In this document: in pieces, positions 1 to 57,553 of the stretch
Layout of the letters: every line of letters begins with the position of its first letter
How positions within the stretch are numbered: position 1 is the first letter of the stretch
Assembly: GCA_044892505.1 (NCBI GenBank)
Contig: CM097882.1
Coordinates: forward strand, 257,424,001 to 257,488,000
From: Schmidtea nova
Lineage: Eukaryota
Length of the DNA stretch: 64,000 bases
Direction: 5' to 3'
The notes under the pieces: model-generated
Told to the model about the DNA's origin: nothing
What the model saw: the letters and a program-made list of their open reading frames with translations, nothing else
Databases searched by the model: none
Translations under genes and position numbers: made by a program

Positions 1-2
1 AC

Positions 3-506
3 CTCACGCCGAGAGGAAAAATGAGACATTTCCAATCGAGAATACATGGCATCACAGAAATTGCGAGTAGGAACCAATGCGACCAATATTTGGAGATGAA
101 ACAAATTCAGAATTTAACTGTTGGGAAAATATTGGTTGGCCATGATTTGCATGCAGAACTCCAGTATTTGAAAATTTGGACAAATCAATTATATGGCATT
201 CGGGATTTGTCCACGGCAAAGGCACTTCAATTGCAAGAAATATCGAGAAAAGGTGAATTTTTCAAACTGAAAACTGTGGTTGAACAAATGCTTGGAGAAC
301 AAATGCAAGTGCGCATCCATTCAGCTCTAGAGGATGTCAAAAACATTCGGAAAATATATCTAAAAATTGAAAATTCATGGATTGATGATATCCAAATTCC
401 CAAAGAAGTATTCATTGGAGGAATATCGAAAAGTTCATACCATAAACACAATGCCAACGACGAGCACGGCAATTACGAAAACCATTGCCCTGTCTGTGGG
501 AATTGA
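3..506 (+). CDS. DEDDh 3'-5' exonuclease, REX4/ISG20-like (5'-partial; frame open to the window edge)
   Basis: LTPRGKMRHFQSRIHGITE resembles ISG20 IRPEGEITDYRTRVSGVTP; ExoII-like ILVGHDLHAEL, IRDLST and ExoIII HSALED are present; C-terminal HCPVCG; no introns. The ExoI motif would lie upstream of the window. Confidence 0.8.
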   Translation, partial: LTPRGKMRHFQSRIHGITEIASRNQCDQYLEMKQIQNLTVGKILVGHDLHAELQYLKIWTNQLYGIRDLSTAKALQLQEISRKGEFFKLKTVVEQMLGEQMQVRIHSALEDVKNIRKIYLKIENSWIDDIQIPKEVFIGGISKSSYHKHNANDEHGNYENHCPVCGN

Positions 507-510
507 GAAA

Positions 511-825
511 ATGGCAGAGCAAATCGATTTGACAGAGGATATGGAAGTTGATTTGGAAATTGGGAAATCGAAATTGAAGTTGGCAACAGAAAATGATCTC
601 GAGGCAATTGAAGAAAACGTTGAGGTAATAACCGGTTTGTCTATCGCAAGAGTTTTAATATCATATGAAAATGGACCGATCCTCCACCTCGAAAATAGAA
701 AAAGAAAATATGCACAAATAGAAGCCAGTGAAACCATAACGGTAAATGGGATTATTTATCGGCGCGAAAAAACGTTTATTCGCTACAAAAGTGAAGTCGG
801 AAAAATTGAATTAAAATTAGACTAA
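511..825 (+). CDS. Hypothetical ~104-aa protein (MAEQIDLTEDMEVDLEIG...), directly after the exonuclease ORF
   Basis: ATG at 511 lies 4 nt after the TGA of the upstream ORF; frame is open 367-825; AATAAA at 859-864. Confidence 0.5.
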   Translation: MAEQIDLTEDMEVDLEIGKSKLKLATENDLEAIEENVEVITGLSIARVLISYENGPILHLENRKRKYAQIEASETITVNGIIYRREKTFIRYKSEVGKIELKLD

Positions 826-1029
826 CAATATATATGTGTATATATATTTTAATTAAGTAATAAATATTTTATTGTCTTTGATTTTGGCGTCCCATCCCAA
901 AATAAGTTAAATAAACCAAAAAAAATAAAATAAAATAGAAATTATGAGTACGATAGAAGTAACCCTCATACAATATGAGAGCATTACCATTGTCGTCGTA
1001 ATCGGTAAAAAAAAATTGTTAGAAACGTT

Positions 1030-3103: not shown

Positions 3104-3622
3104 CTAACTATTATTATCATCGACAGTTATTGTTNNNNNNNNNNNNNNNNNNNNNNNNNNNNNNNNNNNNNNNNNNNNNNNNNNNNNNNNNNNNNNNNNN
3201 NNNNNNNNNNNNNNNNNNNNNNNNNNNNNNNNNNNNNNNNNNNNNNNNNNNNNNNNNNNNNNNNNNNNNNNNNNNNNNNNNNNNNNNNNNNNNNNNNNNN
3301 NNNNNNNNNNNCAGTTATTGTTCTTATTATTAATATTAATATTATTAATATTATTATTATGATTATTATGATTATTATGATTATTATTATTATTATGATT
3401 ATTATTATTATTATTGTTCTTGTTGTTCTTATTGTTAATTATTATATTATTATTGTTGTTGTTCTTGACTATTATTATCATCAACAATTTTAGAATTATT
3501 AGTATTATCATTATTAAGATTGCTATTACTATTAAAATAAGTATAAGTATTATTCTTAGTGTCATAATTATTATTTTCATCATTATCATCAATATGAAAC
3601 TATTACTATAATATATTGTTAT
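2990..3622. repeat. (ATT)n microsatellite with assembly gap (N 3135-3311)
   Basis: Long perfect ATT run followed by degenerate ATT/GAT repeats. Confidence 0.95.
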
Positions 3623-4628
3623 TGTTAGGATCAGGCCTTTGGCCTTAACGTTTTGAGGTTTTAATAATAATAATAATAAATTACTAAAAATAATTAAAAT
3701 AAAATAAAAATAATTTAAAACAGTTGTTAGAAAAAAAAATAGAAAAACAATTACTAAAAATAGAACCAGGCCTTTGTCTGGTAATTGTTAGAATATAATT
3801 GGCAATTATTTATTGACAAAATCGACGTAGGTAGATTTAATTTCAATATAAATAATACGGCATTTTAGTTTACAAAGGACAGACGGACGGACAGTGAAAA
3901 ACAACGTGTGAGAGAAAAATAATAAATACATTTGAAGTGAACGTTGATCGACGAAACAATCAGGGTGGTAACCTACAGCATCGAAATTTGGCATATATAT
4001 ATATATATATATACATATATATATACGTATATAGAAAAATATAGGTATTGGAGACAAGAGAGAGGAGAGAGACAGAAAAGAGAAAAAGAAAATTATCGTT
4101 GGAAAAGAAGTAATTTCTAAACTTGCATAAAAATATTTATAATCGAGTAGAGAGTGAAAGATAAATTTATCTTTTTGGTTGTAAAATCATTATTGTTAAT
4201 ATTATTTTTTAAAGCGGATACAAAGTAACGAAGATTACTTTAGTATCCTCTGGGTGCCCCAAAATCATTCCTCTTGCTTATCCTCTCTAGTAAAAAAATT
4301 TCTTAGCGATCGTTGTGCTACTGAGGTGCCAACGATTTCTTGCAGACTGTCACAAACAGTAGGGATTAATTTAATCCGAGATCTTTCTTGTTCTGTACAT
4401 CGATAAATTTTGTGAATAATTTGAATATTGTTTTGTAAATTGATTAAATAAAATTTGGAAATATAGTTAGTTTTCATTTACAGATTTTACCTGTTTTTAA
4501 AATACACGCAACCACATTAATTTTGTTATATTTATATTTATTCATTTATTTGTTATATAACAATATATAGATATAAAATAGGAGTCAATTTGTGTTAAGA
4601 TCAGCACCCCCATCTTTTGATCTTGACA
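3623..4628 (+). repeat. 5' LTR (1006 bp)
   Basis: TG...CA ends with an imperfect terminal inverted repeat (TGTYARGATCA); (TA)n/TATA-like tract near 3990-4030; 3' half duplicated at 12584-13117. Confidence 0.9.
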
Positions 4629-4631
4629 TTT

Positions 4632-4649
4632 TGGTGAGCCCGACGTGAT
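4632..4649 (+). promoter_or_regulatory. Primer-binding site complementary to the tRNA-Trp 3' end
   Basis: TGGTGAGCCCGACGTGAT, 3 nt after the LTR CA. Reverse complement ATCACGTCGGGCTCACCA differs at 1 of 18 positions from the vertebrate tRNA-Trp end ATCACGTCGGGGTCACCA (recalled sequence). Confidence 0.85.
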
Positions 4650-4764: not shown

Positions 4765-6822
4765 ATGGCAGACATAAATAATTTACAAAATGATAATAAT
4801 TTACAAAATAATGTCAATAATAATAATGTGCCAGTAGCTCAACCACCAGCGGTAGATTTTATGAGATACCCAACAATACCAATTAAACCATTTAGTGGGA
4901 ACCCCGGGGAGTTTCCAGAATTTATGTCCGAATATTTTCAGTTAGCCAGAGCATTAGGTTTCCCCGAACCGGTAATGATTTTGAGATTACCTTTATATCT
5001 AAAAGGGATGGCGCGTGAAATATATAATGATGTTATTATAGCCGAGCATCCAGCTGAATGGAATGTATTGCGGTTAGCGTTACAAAATAGAATATTACCC
5101 GGGGATGCAACCAGAGTGCTTAGACAACAATTTTATAATAGGAGACAGAATTTGGGTGAGCATGTTGGGGAATTTTCTTATCAAATACTAATGTTGGCAG
5201 AGAGAGCTTTTGGCGATAGGGCAGCTTGGAATGAGGCAACAAGAGCGTTAGTAAAAGACCAGTTTTGGTCAGGGTTATCGTCCGCAATGAGAAACGCACT
5301 CAGTTTACATATAGGGGATAATTTAGAGGAATTAACTCGTAAAGCTTGTTTAATTGAAAGTAGTATAGAGAAGTTAAATAATTTCGCAATTAGTACCAAT
5401 AAGTCCGACATTGAGTGTTTTAACTGTCATAAAAAGGGTCACATATCTAAAGATTGTAGGAGCAGGAATAATCCTATAGGGGAAAAATCATGTACCAGAT
5501 GCGGGAGAAACAATCATGTGGCGGCAAACTGCAGATTTTCGGACTTGAGTTGTGAGAAATGTAAACGCAAGGGACATGTAGCGTCAGTGTGTAAAGCTAG
5601 GTTTGGGGAGACTACCTCAAGTAATAATTTTAATAATAATAGAAATAGAAGCCCCGATAGAAATTTTCAGAATAATAATAATAATAAAAATTTTCAGAAC
5701 AAGAGTAATAATTTTTCAAATAATAATAATAATAATAATATAAAGAGGGATGAAGTGAATTCGGGGGGTAAAATTAAATGTCATACGTGTGGAAAATTTG
5801 GTCATATTATGCGTTCATGTCCACAAAATCAGTTGATTAATAATAATAGCAGTAATAATAATAGTGGTAGTAGTCGACCGAAACAGACTACGTTTGCAGT
5901 GAATTCTGATCACAAATTAACGTATTTACAGCAGCTTGAATTAGAAATTCAAGAAGAGAGAAATAGGTTAGCACGGCTAACGACAAATGAAATCGATGAA
6001 TACGGAGAAGATGAAGCCGAGGTGTATATGTTGTCAGCCAGAAAGGGGCGCAACAAAGATAAAAATAATAAGAGTAAATTAAGTAATGATATTGTAGCAG
6101 AACTTGAGGTATTGATGCTTCAAGAGAGTCCACAGGAGGACCGAGAGGAAAAGGCTATGGTTGTAGAACCAGAGGCTTGTGAGGGTTTACCGATTTCACC
6201 CAGTAAAAATCGAAAGACCATGGTCAGGGAACCAGAGGTCAAAAGTGGTTATGAGGGTTTACCGGTTTCACCCAGGAAAAATCGAGTGGCTATGGTCACA
6301 GAGCCAGAGGCCAAAGAAGGTTTACCGGTTTCACCTAGTAAAAATCGTAAAGTCATGGACATAGATCCAGTGGCTAATAGGAAATATCCAACAGAAGTTT
6401 TGGAAAAACGATGGGCTTCGGTCAGTGAGCCGGAAGTCTTAATAACCACATCATCCCAGAGAGATGATGGTGGCAGCAAACCAATAAAAGTTAGAGAGGC
6501 ATCGAAAGAGGAAAGTAATCCCATCGATGACTGTAAAATGCTATTACGTCATAGGAACGTATGGCAAAGAGAAATGGAACAGAGGCTAGAAAATATTAGA
6601 TTAAACCCCATTAACGAGAATGAGGTAGATAAAATAATGGATATCATATTAGAATTAAATAGAAATGATGAGTACCATCCGGTATTAAGAGAAATCCTTC
6701 GAAGCATAGGATTAAGTTGGAAGCAAAAAGGAGATCTAGAAGATTCCATAGTTTTTGTTGTCCTACCAAGAGGTTGTTTTTGTAGATATACAATAAACCC
6801 AAGAGAAAAGTCGAAGCACTAG
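4765..6822 (+). CDS. gag: Gag with capsid domain, four CCHC zinc knuckles and a long C-terminal extension
   Basis: PIKPFSGNPGEFPEF capsid start; CFNCHKKGHISKDC, CTRCGRNNHVAANC, CEKCKRKGHVASVC and CHTCGKFGHIMRSC (5416-5820); three EGLP(I/V)SPxKNR repeats; the extension ends in the first half of a ubiquitin-like fold. Confidence 0.93.
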   Translation: MADINNLQNDNNLQNNVNNNNVPVAQPPAVDFMRYPTIPIKPFSGNPGEFPEFMSEYFQLARALGFPEPVMILRLPLYLKGMAREIYNDVIIAEHPAEWNVLRLALQNRILPGDATRVLRQQFYNRRQNLGEHVGEFSYQILMLAERAFGDRAAWNEATRALVKDQFWSGLSSAMRNALSLHIGDNLEELTRKACLIESSIEKLNNFAISTNKSDIECFNCHKKGHISKDCRSRNNPIGEKSCTRCGRNNHVAANCRFSDLSCEKCKRKGHVASVCKARFGETTSSNNFNNNRNRSPDRNFQNNNNNKNFQNKSNNFSNNNNNNNIKRDEVNSGGKIKCHTCGKFGHIMRSCPQNQLINNNSSNNNSGSSRPKQTTFAVNSDHKLTYLQQLELEIQEERNRLARLTTNEIDEYGEDEAEVYMLSARKGRNKDKNNKSKLSNDIVAELEVLMLQESPQEDREEKAMVVEPEACEGLPISPSKNRKTMVREPEVKSGYEGLPVSPRKNRVAMVTEPEAKEGLPVSPSKNRKVMDIDPVANRKYPTEVLEKRWASVSEPEVLITTSSQRDDGGSKPIKVREASKEESNPIDDCKMLLRHRNVWQREMEQRLENIRLNPINENEVDKIMDIILELNRNDEYHPVLREILRSIGLSWKQKGDLEDSIVFVVLPRGCFCRYTINPREKSKH

Positions 6823-6956
6823 CCAAGAAAGTCGCTGAGGTAAAACCTCGATTGAAATGCGAACTATATTTGTTGGGAGAAAAACTATTAGAGGGAGAAA
6901 CCCTACTAGATTGTGGTATAATACCAGGAAAACAAATGCTAGTAAAAGCAAAGTTT
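6748..6956 (+). other. Ubiquitin-like domain 1, split across the ORF1/ORF2 frame junction
   Basis: IVFVVLPRGCFCRYTINPRE|KVEALAKKVAEVKPRLKCELYLLGEKLLEGETLLDCGIIPGKQMLVKAKF aligns by eye with ubiquitin ([21 protein letters not shown] vs CELYLLGEKLLEGETLLDCGI). Confidence 0.7.
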
Positions 6957-9900
6957 CACAAGGAAACTGTCACGGTAGTGGACTCAGAAAATGTCCTAAC
7001 AATAACTGAAATGGAAATAGAACAATTAAATCAAATATCAGCGATACCACAAAGATTGGGGACGGAGCTGATGCAAAACCCGAGGGACGGGGAAACCATT
7101 AAGATGATAATGGATTTGATATTGGAGTTACGAATCCCAGTAGATACTCTTAGAGAGGTTATGCCGTTGGTGGTGCCCTTATTGAAAGAAACATCACCAT
7201 TTCAAACGCAAGCAAAGATGCTAGTAATCAAAAATGGGCATGCTATTAGACACCAGGATAATAGACAAGGTCCAGTTATGTTAGATATCAGGATACCCAG
7301 GAGAGGACACCTGATACAACAATTTTCGTGTTTCCATAAAGTCAAGAAACTGAGGAAGCGAGTATCGACAATAGTAAAAGAGTCATTTATAATAATGATA
7401 CACGGTTGTCAGGTTGATGACGACGAATATTTAGTGGATGTAGGATGTTTTCCTCAAGAGGAAACTATAGTATTGATATTATTGGTCGAGCTTCCAGAGG
7501 ACCAATGGGCAACACTGAGATTGCCAGATGATGCTGAGTTAGAGAAGGATGAGATCCCTCCCGAGCAGCAACAAGTAGGTGAAGATACCCGCCTACAGGC
7601 AGGGGAAACGGTAGATTTAGATGCAGAAATAGACAAATATTTACGGGAATTCGACAACACTGAGGATGAGTTGATCGAAATAATGCCACCTATAGAAGAT
7701 GAAAGTATAAGATTGAACCAAAATGAAACGAACATCGGAGCTAGTACTTCACAGGGAATTGGGCCACCAAGAGATAGGATGAGCCCGAGATTTGTTGAAA
7801 ACAGGAGAAAGAAGGAGAGAAGAGGGAGACCAAGAAAGAGTCAAATGAACCCGCCTCCAAGAGAACTCCTAAGGCCTATCACGATACAAAGCGTAAACAG
7901 GCAGGTTTTGGCAGGGATAGCCAGCCAAATTGATAAAGGCACAAGAGACTTTAGTGCTAAAACGGAAACATGGAGGAGATTGAACCAAATATTAAGACTG
8001 ATGAAGCCCGAGTGGCAAATCAAGAAAGATAAAGCTATAAATATTGAGAAAATTACAGACAAGATTAAACAAGCAATGAATAAGATTCCGGGAAGCACAA
8101 CTGAACAGGAATTGTTCGAGGTAGCAGGACAATTTATGCAAGAAGGATTGACAAAAGGGAAAATGATAACAATTTTAGCACTAATGTTTAAAAATACCGT
8201 AATAAAACTCAAGGATGATCCATCAGGAATTCAAGTAGCCTTGGACAGGCTGACTGATATTATTGAAGTGAATTTTGAAACGTGGATGACGGAACACAAG
8301 TTTTGGGAGACGAAGGAAACGAAAGGAAAGTATGAGATAAATGAGGAAATGTTGACAGAAAATGTCTCAAGTAATCCACGGGGAACAGGTGGATTCACAA
8401 ATTGGATGATGATGTTATTAGTAATGATGGGAATATTGAGACAGACAAACTCCTTAACAGCATACGACTGTAGCGAACCGATATTAGCACGGATTTACTC
8501 ATTAGTAGACACAGTGGAATGCAAGGAAGCATATCCAGATAAAGTTGCAAAACGAGAGGATGTAGAATACCATGTTTATCAGCAAACAGAGTTTTATAGG
8601 ACCAGGGTGAGGGAATGTCGAATACAGAGAGCGACATTTGAGTATTACTGTGGATCACACAGTTATACAGCGTTTCTAGTAGCTAAGCTCATTCCAGTAC
8701 CATTGATAATCCCACCAGAGGATTGCATAAATGCTTTTAGATCTAAAAATGTCAAAATAGATGACGAAGTGACAATCACAGCAGAGGAAGGAAAGAAGCT
8801 GGGTATAACGATTACCAGAGGAGGACCGATAGCAGATGATGGTTCTTGCACCGGTAGAAAGAAATTAAGAGGTTCTAATATTGTGAGTTATGTAGTAACA
8901 GTTGAGGATTACACTGTAGAGCTGATAGAATACGAAGGAACATTTGAAGTATCCACGGGTAAAATGATGTCCCATCCTGAATGTAATGTAAAGTTTGGGT
9001 ATTGTAAAACCAGCACAGCGGTACTAACATATCAATCAATGAGAGAATTTTGCGATTTGGGATACCTGAAAAAAGTAGTATTTTCAAGACTTGATGGGAA
9101 AAGTTTTGCAGCACAAGAGTCACACCAAAGCGGGTGGGGAGATAAGATAACTCACAAGACGAAAAAAGAGAAAGTATCCGAGAAAAGCACAGCAGTAGTT
9201 TTAGTCGCAAAGGATCCAACCGATGCTATCCGACTAGTTAGAAAGAAGCAGATAACAAAATGTGGTGTGCCAATATTCGAGACAAACTATAAAGGAATAT
9301 TCTTAGCATACAAATATGTTCCGGCAGCAGAAACATTACATTTGTCAGATATAAAAATAGCAAAATATATCAATAATAAAATTGACTTTTTGTATCATGA
9401 TTTACAGAAGCAATTGTTAGACGTTTATCAGGAAGTGATCTTGAATGATTGCCGTTTAAACAGGGAAATAATACGAAATAGATTAGCAACATCTATTTCA
9501 AACCCTGATTTAGTAATGCCAATGTTAACCGAGGAGGGAACATTTGGTAGAATTTTGGGAGAAGCAATTTATAGCTATCAATGCAAGGCGGTGGAGGTAG
9601 AAATAACCAAATACGATCAATGCACTTTAGAGCTTCCAGTAAAATATAAAGGAAAATTAAGATTTATGATACCAGTATCACATCAGTTGATGGGAGAAGA
9701 TGCGACTCCATTGAAGACAATTTGTAATCCAGCAATGTCACCGTTATATAAAATCAACAATATATGGATTTCCTTACCAGATAGGAAACCACCTTCTAAA
9801 CCAGTAGAAGTGTTGCAGGCGACTAAATTGGAAACTAAAATGGAGTTTCGACCATTAAATGAGATGTCAAAAGGGGGAGTATATACTCAGGAAGATATTG

Positions 9901-12602
9901 AAGAAGCTAGGAGAGCAATAGTGTTTCCTCAAATCAGAGATAGAGGAGTGACAGAGATAATAACTAGAATTTATCAATCATACGACGGTAAACCGGACTA
10001 TAATTTATTATTTGGACCGGAACACTACAAGCAAGCAGCATCAAACGTGATTCGGAGAATCTGGGGAAGATTCACAAGTTTCGGAATTTTTGTAGCAGGA
10101 TGTTCAGGCATATACGCTATAGTGATGATATTGAAAATAATCATATCACAATTATTTTCCACATATAGTATCTTCAAAATCGGAGGATGGTCTTGGAAGT
10201 TGCTATTGGGAATGTGCCCACTTTGTGCAGATTTCGCAGTATTTCATCATCACAATAAAGAAATCAAGAAAATGAAAAGACAAAATGTAACAAAGCACGA
10301 AATAATAAAGTATGAATATAGTCATCGAGACGATGACAATTCTGACGAGGGAGGTAACCTAGAGGGCGACAAGACCTCATATAACACCTCAACAAAACCA
10401 GACAACAAAAAACCGAATTTTCAAAATTTTGAAACTAGTACTTTTCAACAGTACCCTGTTAAAACAAAAAGACGAAAACAACAGGAATGGCCTGTGAAAT
10501 ATGTGTCACCATATGAAACTAGGAGAAAGATAATACCAGAAAAAGTGGAAGAGGAGATGTTGAGGCGTTTCGATTTTAGGACAAACGCAGGTATATCAGC
10601 ACCTCCTATACATTCAGAGTATCACATGAATTTCGAGACAATGCCACCTTTGGGAACATCGGTACTAGAAACAGTACCAAAATATCCGTTTAGCACGTTA
10701 GAGAGGCTAAAGGAAAATTATCAAGATGAAATAAAATCGGAAGACGACAGAGATAGCGAGAATCAACAGAAATTCAGAGATAATATTCGAGGAATATCAA
10801 CAGTGTTTATGGTAAATTCCAGCAAAAAGACGCACAAGCCTACAATTAAATTAAAGGTTAATAGGCATACGGTTCATGCCATTATCGATTCAGGATCAGA
10901 TGTAACACTGGTTGAAGCAAATTTATTAAATGAAAAAGAATTACAAGCAATAGTACCGACATTAACAATTACATCAGGAGCAAATGGTCAGCCAATCAAT
11001 GTTATCGGGACATTAGATTGTGAGCTGAGGCTATGTGATCAGAAATTTAGACACGATATCAAGGTCACCAGACAGTGTATGGCAGAATGTATCGTGGGAA
11101 TGGATATATTAAAAAAGTTAAAAGATATAGTATTTGATTGTGCGACAGGTGAATTGGTAAAAATGACGGGTAGAAAACGGAAAACATACAGTGTTGATGT
11201 AGTTTTTCTGGATAGATCTGTGAAAATACCACCAAGAACCGAAACAGTTTGTTTTGTGGCAACACACCAAGAGGTCGAGGGAGATGTTATTTTCGAACCC
11301 AGTGAGCAGTTCATGAACAGATATAAAACACCTATGGTGCAGAATTTGGCAACAGTACGGGGAGGAAGAATCCCAATTAGATTAACGAATCTAGCGAATA
11401 AATCATTGAGGTTGTACCCAGAGACAAGAGTGGGTAAAGTGATACAACTTTCCAATCCTAGGAAAGAGTCTGAATCAATATTATCGGTGAGCGAGGAGGA
11501 ACGAGATCCCGATATTGAGTATTACGATGCACCTAGTTGTGATAGTAAAACGTTAACGAGAAAAGAGAATATTAGAGTTAATCAATTATTACGAAAATAT
11601 GATCAAGTGTTCGCAAAGCACGAATATGACTTAGGGCAAGTTAATATTTTAGAGCATGAGATTAAACTAACAGAGAGTAAACCAATAAAGATACGTCCGT
11701 ATAGAATACCTCAAAGCATACAAGGGTCCGTGGATAAACAAATAAAATTAATGCAAAAATATAATATAATCAGACCAAGTAAATCTCCATATTCTTCACC
11801 CTTGGTGATTGTAGCTAAGAGAGATGGTTCCGTTAGATTGTGTAATGACTATAGGAAATTAAATGAACAAACTGTAAGTGATAATCACCCACTACCTTTG
11901 TTAGATTATATATACGATAAAATGAAAAATTCGAAACTGTTTACTGTGATGGATGCACAGAAAGGATTCTATCAAATAAAAATGAGCGAAGACTCAATTC
12001 CTATGACAGGATTTTCAACTAGTAGTGATCATTTTGAATATTTAGTAATGCCGTTTGGACTAAAAGGAGCACCTCCAACTTTTCAGAGGGCTATGAATAT
12101 TATGCTGATGGATGCACATCACGCAATGGTATATATTGACGACATTATCATTTTCTCGGAAAATTTAGATAAGCATTTAGAACATCTTGAGGATATTTTT
12201 AAACGGTTAATCATGGCAAACTTGAAAGTTAAACCAAGTAAATGCAAGTGGGCAGAATCAGAAGTGATTTACGTAGGGCATGTAATATCACACGATTGCG
12301 TAAAACCAGATCCGGCTAACACGGATAAAGTAAAGAATTTCCCGCAACCAGTGAACGTGAAACAAATTAAAGGATTTTTAGGGTTGACGGGATATTATAG
12401 AAAATTTATTAGGAATTTCTCTGCAATCGCTTTTCCTTTGACTACGTTAGAAAAGAAAGGAGTAAAATTTTTATGGGGAGAGGATCAGCAGCAAGTATTT
12501 GATAAGTTGAAAGATGCATTATGCAAACCTCCAATCTTACGATTTCCAGATTTTAAAAGACAATTCATGGTGATGACAGATGCATCGTTGGAAAAGAAGT
12601 AA
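6786..12602 (+). CDS. pol: Polyprotein in the -1 frame: Ubl modules, Bcl-2-like domain, class III envelope glycoprotein, aspartic protease, RT, truncated RNase H
   Basis: Single open frame from after TAG 6783-6785 to 12602. [11 protein letters not shown] protease (D at 10887), RT motifs [14 protein letters not shown] and YIDD (12132), [12 protein letters not shown], then FMVMTDAS, which runs into LTR sequence. Confidence 0.93.
   Translation: [1938 protein letters not shown]
7275..7487 (+). other. Ubiquitin-like domain 2
   Basis: [71 protein letters not shown] follows the beta-grasp pattern (V..L+..V; I.I.G.Q.DD..L.D.G....ETIVL). Confidence 0.65.
7878..8312 (+). other. Bcl-2-family-like domain within the polyprotein
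   Basis: BH1-like [22 protein letters not shown] vs Bcl-xL [22 protein letters not shown]; BH2-like [14 protein letters not shown] vs HLEPWIQENGGWDT (same W-x6-W); G-to-W spacing 42 vs 43 aa; N-terminal [12 protein letters not shown] resembles BH4 QSNRELVVDF. Confidence 0.78.
8394..10280 (+). other. env: Envelope glycoprotein of chuvirus-G / gB type (class III fusogen), embedded in the polyprotein
   Basis: Hydrophobic signal [20 protein letters not shown] then LTAYDCS; Cys-rich ectodomain ([37 protein letters not shown]); C-terminal [28 protein letters not shown] and GWSWKLLLG match the membrane-proximal/TM pattern of chuvirus-like glycoproteins found in LTR elements. Confidence 0.88.
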
Positions 12603-13117
12603 TTTCTAAACTTGCATAAAAATATTTATAATCGAGTAGAGAGTGAAAGATAAATTTATCTTTTTGGTTGTAAAATCATTATTGTTAATATTATTTTTTA
12701 AAGCGGATACAAAGTAACGAAGATTACTTTAGTATCCTCTGGGTGCCCCAAAATCATTCCTCTTGCTTATCCTCTCTAGTAAAAAAATTTCTTAGCGATC
12801 GTTGTGCTACTGAGGTGCCAACGATTTCTTGCAGACTGTCACAAACAGTAGGGATTAATTTAATCCGAGATCTTTCTTGTTCTGTACATCGATAAATTTT
12901 GTGAATAATTTGAATATTGTTTTGTAAATTGATTAAATAAAATTTGGAAATATAGTTAGTTTTCATTTACAGATTTTACCTGTTTTTAAAATACACGCAA
13001 CCACATTAATTTTGTTATATTTATATTTATTCATTTATTTGTTATATAACAATATATAGATATAAAATAGGAGTCAATTTGTGTTAAGATCAGCACCCCC
13101 ATCTTTTGATCTTGACA
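12584..13117 (+). repeat. Partial 3' LTR (534 bp, lacking the first 472 bp)
   Basis: Same length as 4095-4628 with no difference seen by eye; ends GATCTTGACA followed by TTAT. Confidence 0.95.
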
Positions 13118-13430
13118 TTATTATCAATAATATTTATTAGTAGCAATAATATTTATTATTATTAGTGTTGTATTAACATTATTCTTATACTCATAAAATT
13201 ATCATCATTAACATTATTATTATAAGCATAAAATTATTCTTATTAAAATTATTATGAATATGGTTAGCGGTAATTATAATGATTAGTATATTATTATTTT
13301 TACAGTTATTATTATTAGTAGTATTATTACCAATTATAAGTTTAATTATTATTGATATCATTATTATAAAAAGTAAATTATGGTCATTAATAATATGGTA
13401 ATATTATTATATTAAATTGTAAATTATTGT
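13118..13430. repeat. Degenerate ATT-rich tract flanking the LTR element
   Basis: Continues the low-complexity tract seen left of 3623. Confidence 0.8.
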
Positions 13431-13539
13431 AGTTGGTATTGAGATTACTCTACCATCTTATTTATAAGCTAAACTATTATTAGTATATATATTAATGGTA
13501 TTGAGTGGACTCTACCATTTTTAATAAATCAAAAGATAG

Positions 13540-14336
13540 ATTCGAGGACGAATCTTAAATAAAGGGGTGAGATATGTTGGGGTTATTATAAAAATCACAA
13601 AATTAACAAGAAATATCAAAATAAATAAAAATGCAAAAATTAATTAAAAGTTATCAAAAATTTAAAATTAATATTCACTAGGGGAAATGGGCATGGTTGA
13701 ATACCAAATCAAAGACGAACCCAAAAATAATAATAGAAATTTAATAAGGGGTCCCCAGAGAAAGTTATTTAATAAAAACAAACTAATTAAAATTAATTAA
13801 TCGCTCAATGGGAAACCCGAGACAATGGGAAGCCCGAGGCAATGGGAAACCCGAGCGATGAGGGAAGCCCGAGCGCAAAGAGACCCGAGAGATCAAAGTC
13901 GGGGCAATTAGGAAAAATCCATCCGAGGATAATTAAAATAATTTGTTAGCCAAACAATTAAACCCAATATTGGTTAACTTTTAGGTATCGATAAAACCTA
14001 ATTGCTATGTGCTAGAACTATAAAAGGCAGCGCAAAACAGAGGACGGGGCCGACGAGTGGACAGTTAAAAAGAGATTATTAAAAAGTCTTTGAAAACGAG
14101 TAAAGAAAGATCCTGAAGAAATTAAACAGACAAAGTAAGAAAGTATCCTGTTAACTAAAGAGTCAAATCCGAATCCAAAGAAAGCGTAAATTAATCAAAC
14201 GTGTGTGTAACAAAGATTGTAATTTGTGTTGATCGTGAATAAAAATTTGTTCTGTGTTGGGTTCATTAATTTCGATCATTAAAGAGCACGAGGAGTCAGG
14301 TCAGTAAACCGATCTTAACCAGAATAATAACCCAAC
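13540..14336 (+). mobile_element. Polypurine tract plus 3' LTR (13575-14336) of a second gypsy-like family
   Basis: GATTCGAGGACGAATC...AAAGGGGTGAGATA precedes TGTTGGGGTTATT; ends AATAACCCAACA (terminal inverted repeat); TATAAAA near 14019; AATAAA near 14238; a related PPT-LTR start lies on the minus strand at ~53780-53830. Confidence 0.8.
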
Positions 14337-15563
14337 AATACTATTTAGAAATCAATTTAAATTATGCAAATAAATAGATGTATATAAGTACATGTCTGTA
14401 AATATAATATATTAACATACATTACCGATGGTGCGCTTATCAACATTCTACATCGTTGAACCAAACTCCATTTTTCAAGATACCGATCTTTTTTCACTTA
14501 AACTAAATGAGCTATACTTGAATGAGATATTTTCTGATGTGGAACGCCAGATTAAATGGCTTGCGCGGTGTAAGTTGATCAAGAATATGCATCTTTGCCG
14601 CCACTGCAATGATGACAAATACTTGCGTTTGGTCCGAAGAACATCCTCGACTGATGGTTTCTACTGGAAATGCAATGCAACATGCAAACACACGGCCTCG
14701 ATCCGAGCCGGAAGTGTATTTGACAATATTAATATGACATTTGAGAAAGTCATTAAAGCCATTTACAAGTATACAAATGGCTGTTCTTTCGTTGATATTG
14801 CCTTTGACCTACACATGCATAGAAATACGGCGGGGGAAATTGGGAAATTGGCTAGGGAAGCAATTTTGCAGTACATGGCCGATAAAAGTGATAAGTTGGG
14901 GGGTGTTGATTCGTGTGGCAATGCCAAAATTGTAGAAATGGACGAAAGTCTATTTTTCAGAAGGAAATACAATCGCGGCAGAATAAGGAATGGACAGTGG
15001 TTTCTTGCGGGCATTGAACGGGGAACCAGAAAGATATTTATCATACCGGTCGAAAACAGGAATGGCGATACGATCGCAGGTGCGATTGTAGACAATGTTG
15101 AGCCAGGCTCCATGATAATAACGGACAAATGGAGAGCCTATGGGTCTGCAATACGAAATTTAGGGGGATATGGGCATGCAACAATAAACCATACATTGAA
15201 TTTTGTGGATCCAGAGAATTCGGAAATTCATACGCAGAATGTGGAGGGTTTGTGGTCAAGAAGCAAATATTCCCTGCGAAAACGGATAGGAATGAAACAA
15301 GAAGCACATACGGAGTATTTAATACAATTTATGTGGGAATATTCCGTGGAGAGGCGCAAAAGACTGCATACGCTTTTGAAAATTCTACATGTTTTGGACG
15401 TGAAATGATGTTAATTTTATTTCCTACTGGTTAGTAAATAGTTGAATTTATGGATGAATGTAACTATATACAATTTAGTTAATGTATGTTAATATATTAT
15501 ATTTACAGGCATGTACTTATATACTTATTTCTTATACTTATGTACTTATTTCTAAATAGTATT
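14337..15563 (+). mobile_element. Merlin (IS1016/IS1595-like) DNA transposon with ~85-bp imperfect TIRs
   Basis: Left AATACTATTTAGAAAT...TAAGTACATGTCTGTAAATATAATATATTAACATACATTA is mirrored at 15480-15563; no TSD recognised. Confidence 0.8.
14428..15408 (+). CDS. Merlin/ISXO2-like DDE transposase, intact, 326 aa
   Basis: N-terminal zinc ribbon (CRHC...WKCNATC); catalytic VEMDES, ITDKWRAY and TQNVEGLW; RKYNRGR motif. Confidence 0.93.
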   Translation: MVRLSTFYIVEPNSIFQDTDLFSLKLNELYLNEIFSDVERQIKWLARCKLIKNMHLCRHCNDDKYLRLVRRTSSTDGFYWKCNATCKHTASIRAGSVFDNINMTFEKVIKAIYKYTNGCSFVDIAFDLHMHRNTAGEIGKLAREAILQYMADKSDKLGGVDSCGNAKIVEMDESLFFRRKYNRGRIRNGQWFLAGIERGTRKIFIIPVENRNGDTIAGAIVDNVEPGSMIITDKWRAYGSAIRNLGGYGHATINHTLNFVDPENSEIHTQNVEGLWSRSKYSLRKRIGMKQEAHTEYLIQFMWEYSVERRKRLHTLLKILHVLDVK

Positions 15564-41566: not shown

Positions 41567-42772
41567 GGATCATGTACATTATACGACATCATATGCCGTA
41601 TAATGTACATGATATTTTTAATTTAAATTTTAAATTTAAACTTTTAATCAATTTAAATAATTTTTGATCAATTTAATTAAACATTTGATCAAGTTGGTTA
41701 GTTAGTTTATGGTATTTAAAAAATAATTAGTTGTTCCCTAATGCATTTCGAAAACGAACTTGAAGAAATTATACAATTGAATGATGAGCAAGTTGTTTCT
41801 AGACTAATGCATCTGGGATTTATTCATTCTCACATGGAATGTCCTTGGTGCAGTGTGGAAATGATTATGAAGCCTTGCAAAGGCAAGATTGATAAGTTTG
41901 AGTGGCGATGCATGCACTCAGGATGCATCAAGAAGCATGCAAGCCTCTCAATTAGGCATTCTAGCTGGATGGAGGAGTATAGACTTACCGCAAAGTCTAT
42001 ACTAAAAGTGCTATTATACTGGTCTAATGACATTAATCAAAATGTCATTTTAAGATTTGTGGACATTAGTAGAGGCACATTGTCAAAACTAAGAAAATTT
42101 TATATATCCAGGATTGAGGAATACTATAATATTCATCCAATATTATTAGGTGGCCCAGGATGTGTGATTAATGTTGACGAAACAATGATAAATCACAAGG
42201 TGAAGGCCCATAGAGAAAGAGCCCCTCACATTCAGACTTGGGTTTTATGTATCGTGGATACATCATTTGTTCCTTCTCGAGGTTTTTGTACTATCCTAGA
42301 GAATAGAACTGCCTCTCACATACTCCCTATTATTTCTAGAGTTGTTAGGCAAGGCTCCACTGTTTATACCGATGAATTTGCATCGTATAATCAATTAAAG
42401 AATATGAATGACTACATTCATCAAACAGTGTGCCACAAATATCATTTTGTGGATCCAATCTCCAGTGTTCATACTCAGAATGTTGAAAGCTTTAATAACA
42501 AGCTTAAGAGTAAGATCAAAACAATGAAAGGTCTTGACGATGCAGGGAGAAAACTATTTCTCAATGAATTCATGTTTTTTGATCAATTTAAAGATCAAAG
42601 TTATGATATGATTTTAAGTTTGTTAAAAATAAATCAAATTAAATTTTAATTTTTTTTAATTTATAATTTTTTTGATTATTTTTTTGATTATTATTTATTG
42701 ATTATTATTAATTTAAAAATAAGCCGTATAATGTACATGATCACTTTTTATGCCGTATAATGTAATTGATCC
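41567..42772 (+). mobile_element. Complete Merlin transposon (1206 bp) with 8-bp TSD GAACATTT
   Basis: GAACATTT|GGATCA...TGATCC|GAACATTT; the GATCATGTACATTATACGGCA motif occurs twice at each end. Confidence 0.97.
41741..42649 (+). CDS. Merlin/ISXO2-like DDE transposase, intact, 302 aa
   Basis: CPWC...WRCMHSGC zinc ribbon; INVDETM, YTDEFASY and HTQNVESFN catalytic motifs. Confidence 0.95.
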   Translation: MHFENELEEIIQLNDEQVVSRLMHLGFIHSHMECPWCSVEMIMKPCKGKIDKFEWRCMHSGCIKKHASLSIRHSSWMEEYRLTAKSILKVLLYWSNDINQNVILRFVDISRGTLSKLRKFYISRIEEYYNIHPILLGGPGCVINVDETMINHKVKAHRERAPHIQTWVLCIVDTSFVPSRGFCTILENRTASHILPIISRVVRQGSTVYTDEFASYNQLKNMNDYIHQTVCHKYHFVDPISSVHTQNVESFNNKLKSKIKTMKGLDDAGRKLFLNEFMFFDQFKDQSYDMILSLLKINQIKF

Positions 42773-55467: not shown

Positions 55468-57553
55468 CAGTCGACTCCGCTTATAAGAATAAGCCCGGAC
55501 CAAATAATAGGCATTCTTATACGCGGAGTATTCCTATATGGAGAGTTAGACCAATATTAACTTTAAAGTATGGAGTTTTTTATTGTCAAATTAATAATTA
55601 AAATATCAAAGGACATACAATTATGCTTTTATTGTTTAAAAAATCTGTAATTTTCCGTTGTATGCGATTATTGTATGCATTTTTCTCGATCATATCTGCA
55701 ACTGCATAATACTCGTCGTATTCTGTAATATCTTGCTCCAAATAATGTCGAATAGTCACGAGCGCGTGTAATGCTTCTTTATGAGTTACTCTGGGTGCCT
55801 CAAACAACTGCACCCCATTAAGTTCTTCATGGTCATTGTCGTCATTCACTTTTTGGTGCTTACTCTGTACTTTATCGCAAATTTCAGCATTGGTTGACGT
55901 GCCATAGCATGCGACTTCATTATCGCAGTCTACGAATGCTTCAAAATCCTCTTGCAAGACTGCTTCTCCTAGCTCGGTAGTAGCTGATTGAATTGGGAAT
56001 AAATCATCTTTATGATATTCTAGACAAACAGTTTGAAAACCAGCCTTTCGGAAACAGTTTCGGATCGTGGCTGGCGACACAAGTAACCACGCCTGCTTCA
56101 GTATGTGCAAGGAAACTAGCACGTCAATTGATTTTGCGTAATCAATAATTAAGTATTCTTCTTCGATGGCCTGAAGCATTTGCCGCATCTCTTGCGTTCT
56201 GTAGTGAACTTTCATAGTACGGATGATTCCTTGATCCAACGGCTGTATAAGAGACGTTGTGTTCCGTGGTATAAATGCCAATTTAATATTATTGAGCTTT
56301 CCTTCCATTTTATGACAAGCAGCGTTTTCGGCAAACAGAATGATTTTTCTCACGCCAAGCTTCCGATCAAATTCAATAAGAATACTAGGCCAAATTCGAC
56401 TGGTCATCCACGCATTACTGCTGTTAAAATATGGCAAAGGCGGTCAAGCATTTCGAAAGCAGCGTGGATTTGCGAATTTCTCAACTGCGTATGCTTTCTT
56501 TTCAGTACCGTTAGAGTTGCAGATAAGAAGCACAGTCATTCGTTCTTTAAGCGCTTATCCGCCAGTTGGTTGAGTACCAGTTGCAGCAAACGTACCAGAG
56601 GTTGCTGCTTTGTAGAATAGGGATGTTTCTTCGGCATTAAAGATATTTGATTCATCGTACCCTTCAATCAAGGTGGGCAAGATGTTGACAATCCAATTTT
56701 CAGCCCCGGTATGATCTGCAGCAGCTCTTTTGCCGACAATTTTCATGAATGTAATGTTATGCCGAATTTTAAGACGCCCTAGCCAGCCATTAGTTGGAAC
56801 AAATAACACATGCCCAAGCATCACTGCTAACTTCCGCGCCTTTTCCATCATTAATGGGCCATTGATCACAGCATTTTGCTGCCGCATTTGAAAAAACCAT
56901 TCCATCAGCGCATCGGAAATTTCTTCATTTGGACTTGCCCGTTTTCTTTTTGGGTTCAGATTCCCGTTTGTTAGAGCTTCATGGCGGATCTCTTTTTTTG
57001 CTTTCTTTTTTTTTGGAGATTGTAGATTGACTCACATTAAACTTCTCAGCAACAGCAGGTTGCTTTTCGGATTTTAACGCTTCCAAAACTTGTAGCTTTT
57101 TCTCAATTGTAAGCGTGTTTCTTTTCGAAGCATTAGCCATGATACTGATACATAATAATTATTTATATAATAAAATCAAACATACGCTTTATAATGTAGC
57201 AAACATAAACATTAAATAAAATATGTTTTTATTCACGGTAATGACCTTTAATATAGCAGCATAAAAAATTTGCACTTAAAAATTCTCAAAAATTCAGCCA
57301 ATAAACAAGCGTCGACATGCTCACTACGATGATGCTTATTGTATTGATACATGTAAATATGCACTTAAGCGGAGTTTAATTCGAAAATCAATTTCATTTC
57401 ATATTCTTATATGTGGAGTATTCTTATATCCGATATTCGTTTAAGCGGAGTTCTCACTATATAAAAATTGCAAAAAAAATCCGGGACATATAAATTCCAT
57501 CATTATAAGCGGAGTATTCCTATATCCGATATTCTTATAAGTGGAGTCAACTG
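55468..57553 (-). mobile_element. pogo/Tigger-like transposon, transposase pseudogenised (57140-55598)
   Basis: TA|CAGTCGACTCCGCTTATAAGAATA ... TATTCTTATAAGTGGAGTCAACTG|TA; CENP-B-type HTH (TLTIEKKLQVLE), PTNGWLGRLK and QPLDQGII; frameshifts. Confidence 0.95.

Follow-up and report, generated by a model that had tools for sequence, protein, structure and literature searches.

An envelope gene read in frame ahead of the protease of an LTR retroelement has been described before. Arkhipova and Yushenova presented Burro/GYPSM1 as the first such case (PMC6431247): its mononegavirus-like Env, accompanied by ubiquitin/SUMO-like and BCL2 domains, stands in a single ORF between the BCL2-like domain and the protease, in an element of over 30 kb that codes for 4,873-5,140 aa and carries MATH, BIR and ankyrin cargo. 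Chary and Hayashi describe elements with gB-type envelopes in GAG-ENV-POL order from nematodes, bryozoans and flatworms (PMC13524379). Their platyhelminth HSV/gB-type errantiviruses have a Ty3/gypsy Pol, many near-identical copies and a region of about 15 kb. In searches of that paper's main text we found nothing on reading frame, cargo or topology, and its Schmidtea rows list no LTR or primer site. Because Env between Gag and Pol is thus already in print in both papers, the order that was flagged at the locus studied here is not new. A chuvirus-type glycoprotein is also found inside the Anakin LTR elements, which differ in belonging to the BEL/Pao superfamily and to mosquitoes (bioRxiv 10.1101/2020.02.15.950899).

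The window, the whole 64,000-nucleotide stretch of Schmidtea nova DNA that was analyzed and whose positions are used below (forward strand unless marked), contains one copy of a related element. This copy lies between the two copies of a 4-bp target-site duplication (3619-3622, recognized from its sequence context, and 13118-13121), and the empty insertion site, with 3618 joined to 13118, is present in contigs of all four public runs, which come from one study. The 5' LTR (TG...CA, about 1.0 kb, 3623-4628) has ends that match sister copies. It is followed by the primer-binding site (4632-4649), a motif common to all five families described below, which we take to be of the tRNA-Trp type; a tRNA search returned no primer tRNA. 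The Gag part (4765-6822) comprises a capsid region, four CCHC knuckles with a zf-CCHC match, and a spacer. Gag is a separate frame in the window copy only, which has a frameshift near 6805 that splits the first ubiquitin-like domain. Downstream, the frame 6786-12602 is open over 1,938 codons, up to the start of the RNase H region (12474-12585), where sister copies read on but the window copy breaks off, about 5.8 kb having been deleted with a 2-nt microhomology at the junction. This loss took RNase H, integrase, a second membrane module, ORF2, the polypurine tract and, of the 3' LTR, the first half. The remaining part of that LTR (12584-13117) is a 536-bp repeat that matches the 5' LTR over its second half at 100% identity. 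With the frameshift and the missing 5.8 kb, the window copy is defective.

In the frame 6786-12602, a hydrophobic stretch (8394-8453), an AYDC motif (8460), the protease DSGS (10887) and the reverse transcriptase YIDD (12132) follow one another. The sequence-only reading had proposed a chuvirus/gB-type envelope fused upstream of protease and reverse transcriptase, and its AYDC start, Cys-rich ectodomain and two C-terminal hydrophobic segments (10080-10157 and 10185-10244) were all found in their places. A profile search of 8394-10280 confirmed the identity of Env (Pfam PF24664 Monjiviricetes_fusion, E 5.3e-81), and the BDV_G profile also matched (E 9.5e-4). As had been claimed, there is no stop before the protease: Env runs on in frame into protease and reverse transcriptase. 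None of 20,000 base shuffles left the 540-nt linker between Env and protease open, so its openness is not due to chance. Among 20 other copies, picked by DNA similarity to the env/protease junction, the stretch from the transmembrane segment to the protease is open in all 20 and that from AYDC to the protease in 15; the five exceptions are broken or deleted within the ectodomain, none of them at the junction. No copy examined has a stop between the Env anchor and the protease, and intact relatives show neither a stop nor a frameshift between env and protease, the one finding in such relatives that the earlier reading had named as fatal to it.

In intact copies there is one frame of about 3,550 codons, which reads Gag, two ubiquitin-like domains, a Bcl-2-like domain, Env, protease (PR), reverse transcriptase (RT), RNase H (RH), integrase (IN) and a second signal-ectodomain-TM module. 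Frames of 3,500 or more codons were found in 33 of 77 full-coverage family-1 matches in a genome search, and frames of 3,400 or more in 22 of 59 family-2 matches counted by hand. Of the 20 copies mentioned above, 13 have a frame that is continuous between the Gag start and RT, and in 11 it stays open as far as the stretch was fetched. A programmed frameshift between Gag and the rest, for which slippery heptamers were listed from the sequence, was ruled out by these 13 continuous copies. Of 273 candidate matches to the env-protease junction 40 were scored, which gives the genome at least 40 copies, nearly all of them at 98% identity or more. Fifteen of the 16 copies that were followed to their ends have an LTR pair, with 96-100% identity between the two LTRs; the sister-copy ends inspected show a polypurine tract and in most cases a 4-bp duplication, and the element measures about 15.2 kb. 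The element is a young, high-copy, recently active Burro-like Ty3/gypsy family. In four further families the order is the same as far as integrase or RT, and the post-integrase module is present in all. The five families are 40-92% identical overall in Env and 49-94% in RT; since families 3-5 are mutually close (RT 94%), they amount to three independent lineages, between which Env is 40-60% and RT 49-76% identical. All domains are under purifying selection: dN/dS, estimated from copies chosen for open frames and from non-independent pairs, ranges from 0.00 to 0.27 among 10-11 family-1 copies, and from 0.03 to 0.43 between families 3 and 4 where dS is estimable. By domain, the values are 0.04 for Env, 0.01-0.05 for its two C-terminal hydrophobic segments, 0.11 for the linker, 0.10 for the Bcl-2-like domain, 0.04-0.09 for the ubiquitin-like domains (0.04 for the second) and 0.17 for the second ectodomain.

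The family has the PR-RT-RH-IN order, LTRs, primer-binding site and target-site duplication of the HSV/gB-type GAG-ENV-POL errantiviruses, with Env placed between Gag and Pol by sequence, and its closest relative seen is Smed_errantivirus_4 of Chary and Hayashi (PMC13524379), whose envelope is identical by eye at 73 of the first 100 positions, a likeness that also points to a planarian host. With Burro it shares the single ORF, the in-frame Env between Bcl-2-like domain and protease, and ubiquitin-like sequence ahead of the Bcl-2-like domain, which is here seen as two weak and separate profile matches (E 0.013-0.017). Unlike Burro as described in PMC6431247, it has four knuckles and two ubiquitin-like domains, is about 15.2 kb long with 3,550 aa, and gave no MATH, BIR or ankyrin Pfam match over the ORF1 and ORF2 parts scanned, where remote copies could be missed. 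Because its size and cargo differ, we file the family as Burro-like, not as Burro. It is a compact, recently active, high-copy version of the Burro plan at half the size, and this compactness brings within reach the question of how an env in this position, in frame with gag before it and pol after it, is threaded, cut and kept in balance. The signal-FN3-like-TM module after its integrase is not mentioned in the text of the Burro paper (PMC6431247). Among the literature listings searched we found no earlier description of such a membrane protein, nor did we find in print a signal peptide that doubles as a Bcl-2 tail anchor, as proposed below; the figure of the Burro paper, or other papers and their supplements, may already show the post-integrase module. 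The unreported parts would be this second membrane protein and the topology model given below, both predicted.

Upstream of Env, the Gag assignment was supported by a Retrotrans_gag match (E 2.5e-7) in a sister family. For the cargo domains the scores are modest, yet methods and literature agree. Ubiquitin-like domain 1 (6745-6960) matched ubiquitin-fold chains weakly with profile A2 (E 0.017-0.57), and in sister families Pfam gave ubiquitin/Rad60-SLD at E 0.008-0.035. Ubiquitin-like domain 2 (7272-7490) shows weak homology to the UHRF1 ubiquitin-like domain (profile A2, E 0.013). The Bcl-2-like domain (7878-8321), with BH1/BH2-like motifs, lies just 5' of the signal peptide; profile A1 matched Bcl-xL in the PDB at E 3.4e-4, and all of the best 60 rows were Bcl-2 family members or their named homologues. 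Its Atlas features reach 0.91 to Bcl-2 clusters, with recognition below the tool's threshold, and Pfam Bcl-2 gave E 2.5e-4 in family 3; all Bcl-2 and ubiquitin Pfam matches are below curated cut-offs. Thus the BH1/BH2 helical core of the Bcl-2 family is indicated by profile evidence, at scores below the Pfam cut-off. The domain does not keep NWGR, the conserved BH1 motif of the family, and a single-sequence fold of the ubiquitin-like/Bcl-2 region was unusable (pLDDT 37). The signal peptide begins about 30-40 residues past the BH2-like motif, and cellular Bcl-2 proteins have their tail anchor at the corresponding position after BH2. We infer that the signal peptide may double as the tail anchor of the Bcl-2-like domain.

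The signal peptide (8394-8453) had been noted in the sequence-only reading; its hydrophobic core is present, but it is internal and not N-terminal, 536 codons into the window frame and about 1,230 residues into the intact polyprotein. In all five families the core is followed by QT-x-(S/T) or QA-x-S ahead of (L/M)(T/V)A(Y/F)DC, and cleavage is predicted here. The chuvirus/HSV-gB-type ectodomain (8454-10070, the PF24664 match) has 14 cysteines in the family-1 copy examined, in a pattern kept in all four families examined. A phmmer search of the PDB with Env returned nothing relevant. In Anakin the glycoprotein is reportedly placed 3' of the integrase. Both C-terminal segments exist as claimed, but only the first scores as a membrane span. 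H1 (10080-10157) is the predicted single transmembrane helix of Env by hydropathy, with insertion energies of +0.6 to +1.4 in four families, and H2 (10185-10244), a conserved GWSWK/Cys-Pro hydrophobic segment at +3.2 to +4.6, is predicted to lie against the membrane without spanning it; these energies come from a rough hydrophobicity scale. For comparison, the same scale gives -1.9 to +2.1 for the two signal peptides, -0.5 to -4.3 for the final TM, and +4.3 for a soluble RNase H helix (families 1 and 2), which falls within the range of H2; H1 is near the signal peptides and is itself marginal. The variable open linker (10245-10830) measures 128-229 aa across families and has a candidate protease site near 10803, at its end. 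A hydrophobic word stands 27-28 residues before the catalytic Asp in all five families, and between RNase H and integrase in four of five; this pattern was chosen after seeing the data, and its whole-protein count is clearly above shuffles in family 1 only. The word before the protease is a candidate release site at which the Env-Pol tether is probably cut.

In Pol, the retropepsin protease (10833-11123, DSGS at 10887) scored above the cut-off with both RVP and gag-asp_proteas, and the reverse transcriptase (11814-12287, YIDD at 12132) matched RVT_1 at E 3.6e-31. Between them, a spacer domain of about 100 aa (11181-11480) is kept in four families and stands where Burro has its dUTPase-like domain; it had no PDB match at E 10 and no dUTPase Pfam match. 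The order PR-RT-RH-IN was confirmed by Pfam on sister copies. In the downstream stretches, integrase follows RNase H in the same frame, and then come signal, ectodomain and TM.

This post-integrase module ends ORF1 (L043:1557-2537, minus strand; L108:2113-3069; L116:1222-2427; L120:1222-2427) and is deleted from the window copy; families 1, 3 and 4 have a Tyr-acidic motif at the end of its tail. A model of the family-3 second ectodomain shows tandem FN3 domains, with pLDDT 70-90 over most of residues 11-190, and searches with it gave Foldseek E 1e-7 to fibronectin and a VIA Z of 9.7. From this model, the family-3 module likely has an FN3 beta-sandwich. No FN3 match was found at the sequence level in the modules of families 3-5. 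The family-1/2 profile had IFNAR1 as its best PDB match (E 0.0067); its hhalign comparison with family 3 was not significant (E 0.056-0.074, with 34 and 131 of 500 shuffles as good), and the family-1 ectodomain gave no usable Atlas match. The second ectodomains (248-326 aa) have 3, 2, 8 and 6 sequons, versus 3 in the 416-765 aa upstream, an enrichment that is clear in families 3-4 and slight in families 1-2. A full HMM search with the post-integrase alignment returned 3 unnamed proteins only, and word-index homologue searches gave no matches. Among public proteins related to the module, P0005 has an integrase-tail-like start before its signal, and P0004 looks free-standing. A separate ORF2 of roughly 450-700 aa precedes the 3' LTR (L043:3-1349, minus strand, with L061; L108:3073-5220; L116:2824-4272). 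It had no meaningful Pfam match and exists in two different versions within family 1. Of additional note, window positions 1-830 hold an exonuclease-like frame fragment (RNase_T, E 0.033); judged by eye, its 3' end looks like the terminal part of ORF2 from families 3-4.

Based on these findings, we think it probable that the intact frame of this roughly 15-kb Burro-like element makes one polyprotein, which is threaded through the ER membrane and cut in the manner of an RNA-virus polyprotein. The simplest topology predicted from the sequence has four passes: signal 1, H1, signal 2 and the final TM. Gag, the two ubiquitin-like domains and the Bcl-2-like domain would be made first and remain cytosolic. 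The internal signal peptide would then translocate the gB-type ectodomain and, once cut by signal peptidase, would remain with the upstream chain, where it would serve the Bcl-2-like domain as a tail anchor and would also tie the Gag precursor to the membrane. H1 would halt transfer and H2 would lie along the cytosolic face, leaving PR-RT-RH-IN as a cytosolic loop. After integrase, the second signal peptide would translocate the glycosylated, likely fibronectin-III ectodomain with its own anchor. By a cut about 28 residues ahead of the catalytic Asp, the element's protease could release itself from the Env tail. As a consequence of the whole scheme, Gag, Env and Pol would assemble together at a single membrane, and the element would spread from cell to cell. 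Since only H1 scores as a span, Pol is predicted to be cytosolic; the earlier view of Pol as the cytosolic tail of Env is therefore kept as far as its position behind the Env anchor is concerned, but the tether would probably be cut by the protease. Because Gag is in the same frame, the primary product is predicted to be Gag:Env:Pol at 1:1:1, and not just Env:Pol at 1:1 as had been supposed. This would leave Gag short by retroviral standards, and so some unseen control step must exist. Counted against the threading model is that the family-1 Env ectodomain has no sequon and the linker three; in families 2-4 the ectodomain has 1-2 and the linker 0-2, with none in the linker of family 3. A similar use of a signal peptide is seen in rubella virus, whose capsid retains the E2 signal peptide as a membrane anchor and is anti-apoptotic (PMC3040668). 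This is an analogy only, as rubella is an unrelated RNA virus with no Bcl-2 fold and with its enzymes outside the structural polyprotein.

A bolder version of the polyprotein model, which we consider doubtful, is a retrovirus built on an RNA-virus plan. In it, a signalase-processed four-pass polyprotein would have arisen by capture of Env at the tail anchor of a Bcl-2 gene, the anchor becoming the signal peptide, and the second glycoprotein, an FN3 protein resembling cytokine receptors and produced 1:1 with the gB-type fusogen, would be an attachment partner or immune decoy. Were the second membrane protein either of these, it would extend the known captures by retroelements and bear on spread between planarian cells; were the whole version true, a retroelement would possess a two-glycoprotein entry system.

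The proposed polyprotein should be weighed against a scheme in which the single frame is only the genomic message and spliced RNAs additionally give Env, Env-Pol or Gag; the ratios would then be free to vary, and the signal peptide, which is rich in Met, could act as an ordinary N-terminal one. The ORF2 start codon lies just behind a T-rich, acceptor-like AG in all four families (two by scan, two by eye), and a donor-like site stands 20 nt before the family-1 Gag ATG; since ORF2 looks spliced, splicing elsewhere is possible. Cer1, too, has no gag/pol stop and yet makes a spliced message (PMC10309623). In a crude scan, however, the 1 kb ahead of the envelope start held no acceptor-like site in families 1, 3 and 4, and family 2 had one at -1010. 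One in-frame deletion with GT...AG ends does exist, but in one tandem array of 4 copies only, among 40 matches scored, and in a weak splice context. Contigs of the four public runs, whose type is unrecorded, show no GT-AG joint and no leader-ORF2 join among those listed; apparent tagmentation adapters in some make them silent on expression. Of the alternatives this one survives best, and it has a real, if minor, chance of being correct.

It is also conceivable, but rather unlikely, that what keeps Env is a use inside the cell (budding into the ER, membrane anchoring, or interference with receptors) and not cell-to-cell spread. The family-1 ectodomain has neither a sequon nor a strict R-x-K/R-R furin site, and derepression of planarian transposons was reported, as "data not shown," to bring no infectious behavior (PMC8532177). 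Against this, the whole ectodomain including its cysteines is selected as strongly as the protease (dN/dS 0.04-0.05), and gB-type envelopes do not all conserve the furin site (PMC13524379).

In a third alternative, at least some chains, if not all, would have H1 and H2 as a hairpin of two spans, with Pol in the lumen, and mixed topology would lower active Pol relative to Gag and Env. The high conservation of H2, the marginal hydrophobicity of H1 and the linker sequons of families 1 and 2 are in its favor, but H2 scores like a soluble helix, the family-3 linker has no sequon, and an all-luminal Pol could not work and would invert the second membrane module, which makes the hairpin improbable. 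Finally, that the fusion is an accident of the window copy or an assembly artefact, as its frameshift and large deletion might suggest, is already refuted by the copy survey, given that all 20 other copies and four further families have an open junction and that contigs of four public runs, all of one study, span it.

Several further observations were made on the copies and on the window. The tandem array with the GT...AG deletion (G000:C3:25.16-25.20 Mb, L028) consists of four copies 11.08 kb apart, in which the in-frame deletion extends from the fourth zinc knuckle into Env; as a spliced retrocopy it is unsupported, being found at one locus only. The window copy is set in AT-rich repeats, and the flanks of L061, L063, L067, L069, L071 and L074 place several copies within long (AAT)n microsatellites; a preference for such repeats as insertion targets is possible. 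At 13530-14338 the window contains the 3' end of a different LTR element, recognized by eye as a tract rich in purines with a TG...CA unit of about 760 bp behind it. At 14416-15408 and 41720-42649 there are two ISXO2/IS1595-like DDE transposase frames (Pfam E 1e-11 and 3.5e-16), the first with inverted repeats at 14337-14424 and 15480-15563, and a DDE_1 transposase fragment (E 2e-24) lies on the minus strand at 55598-56443.
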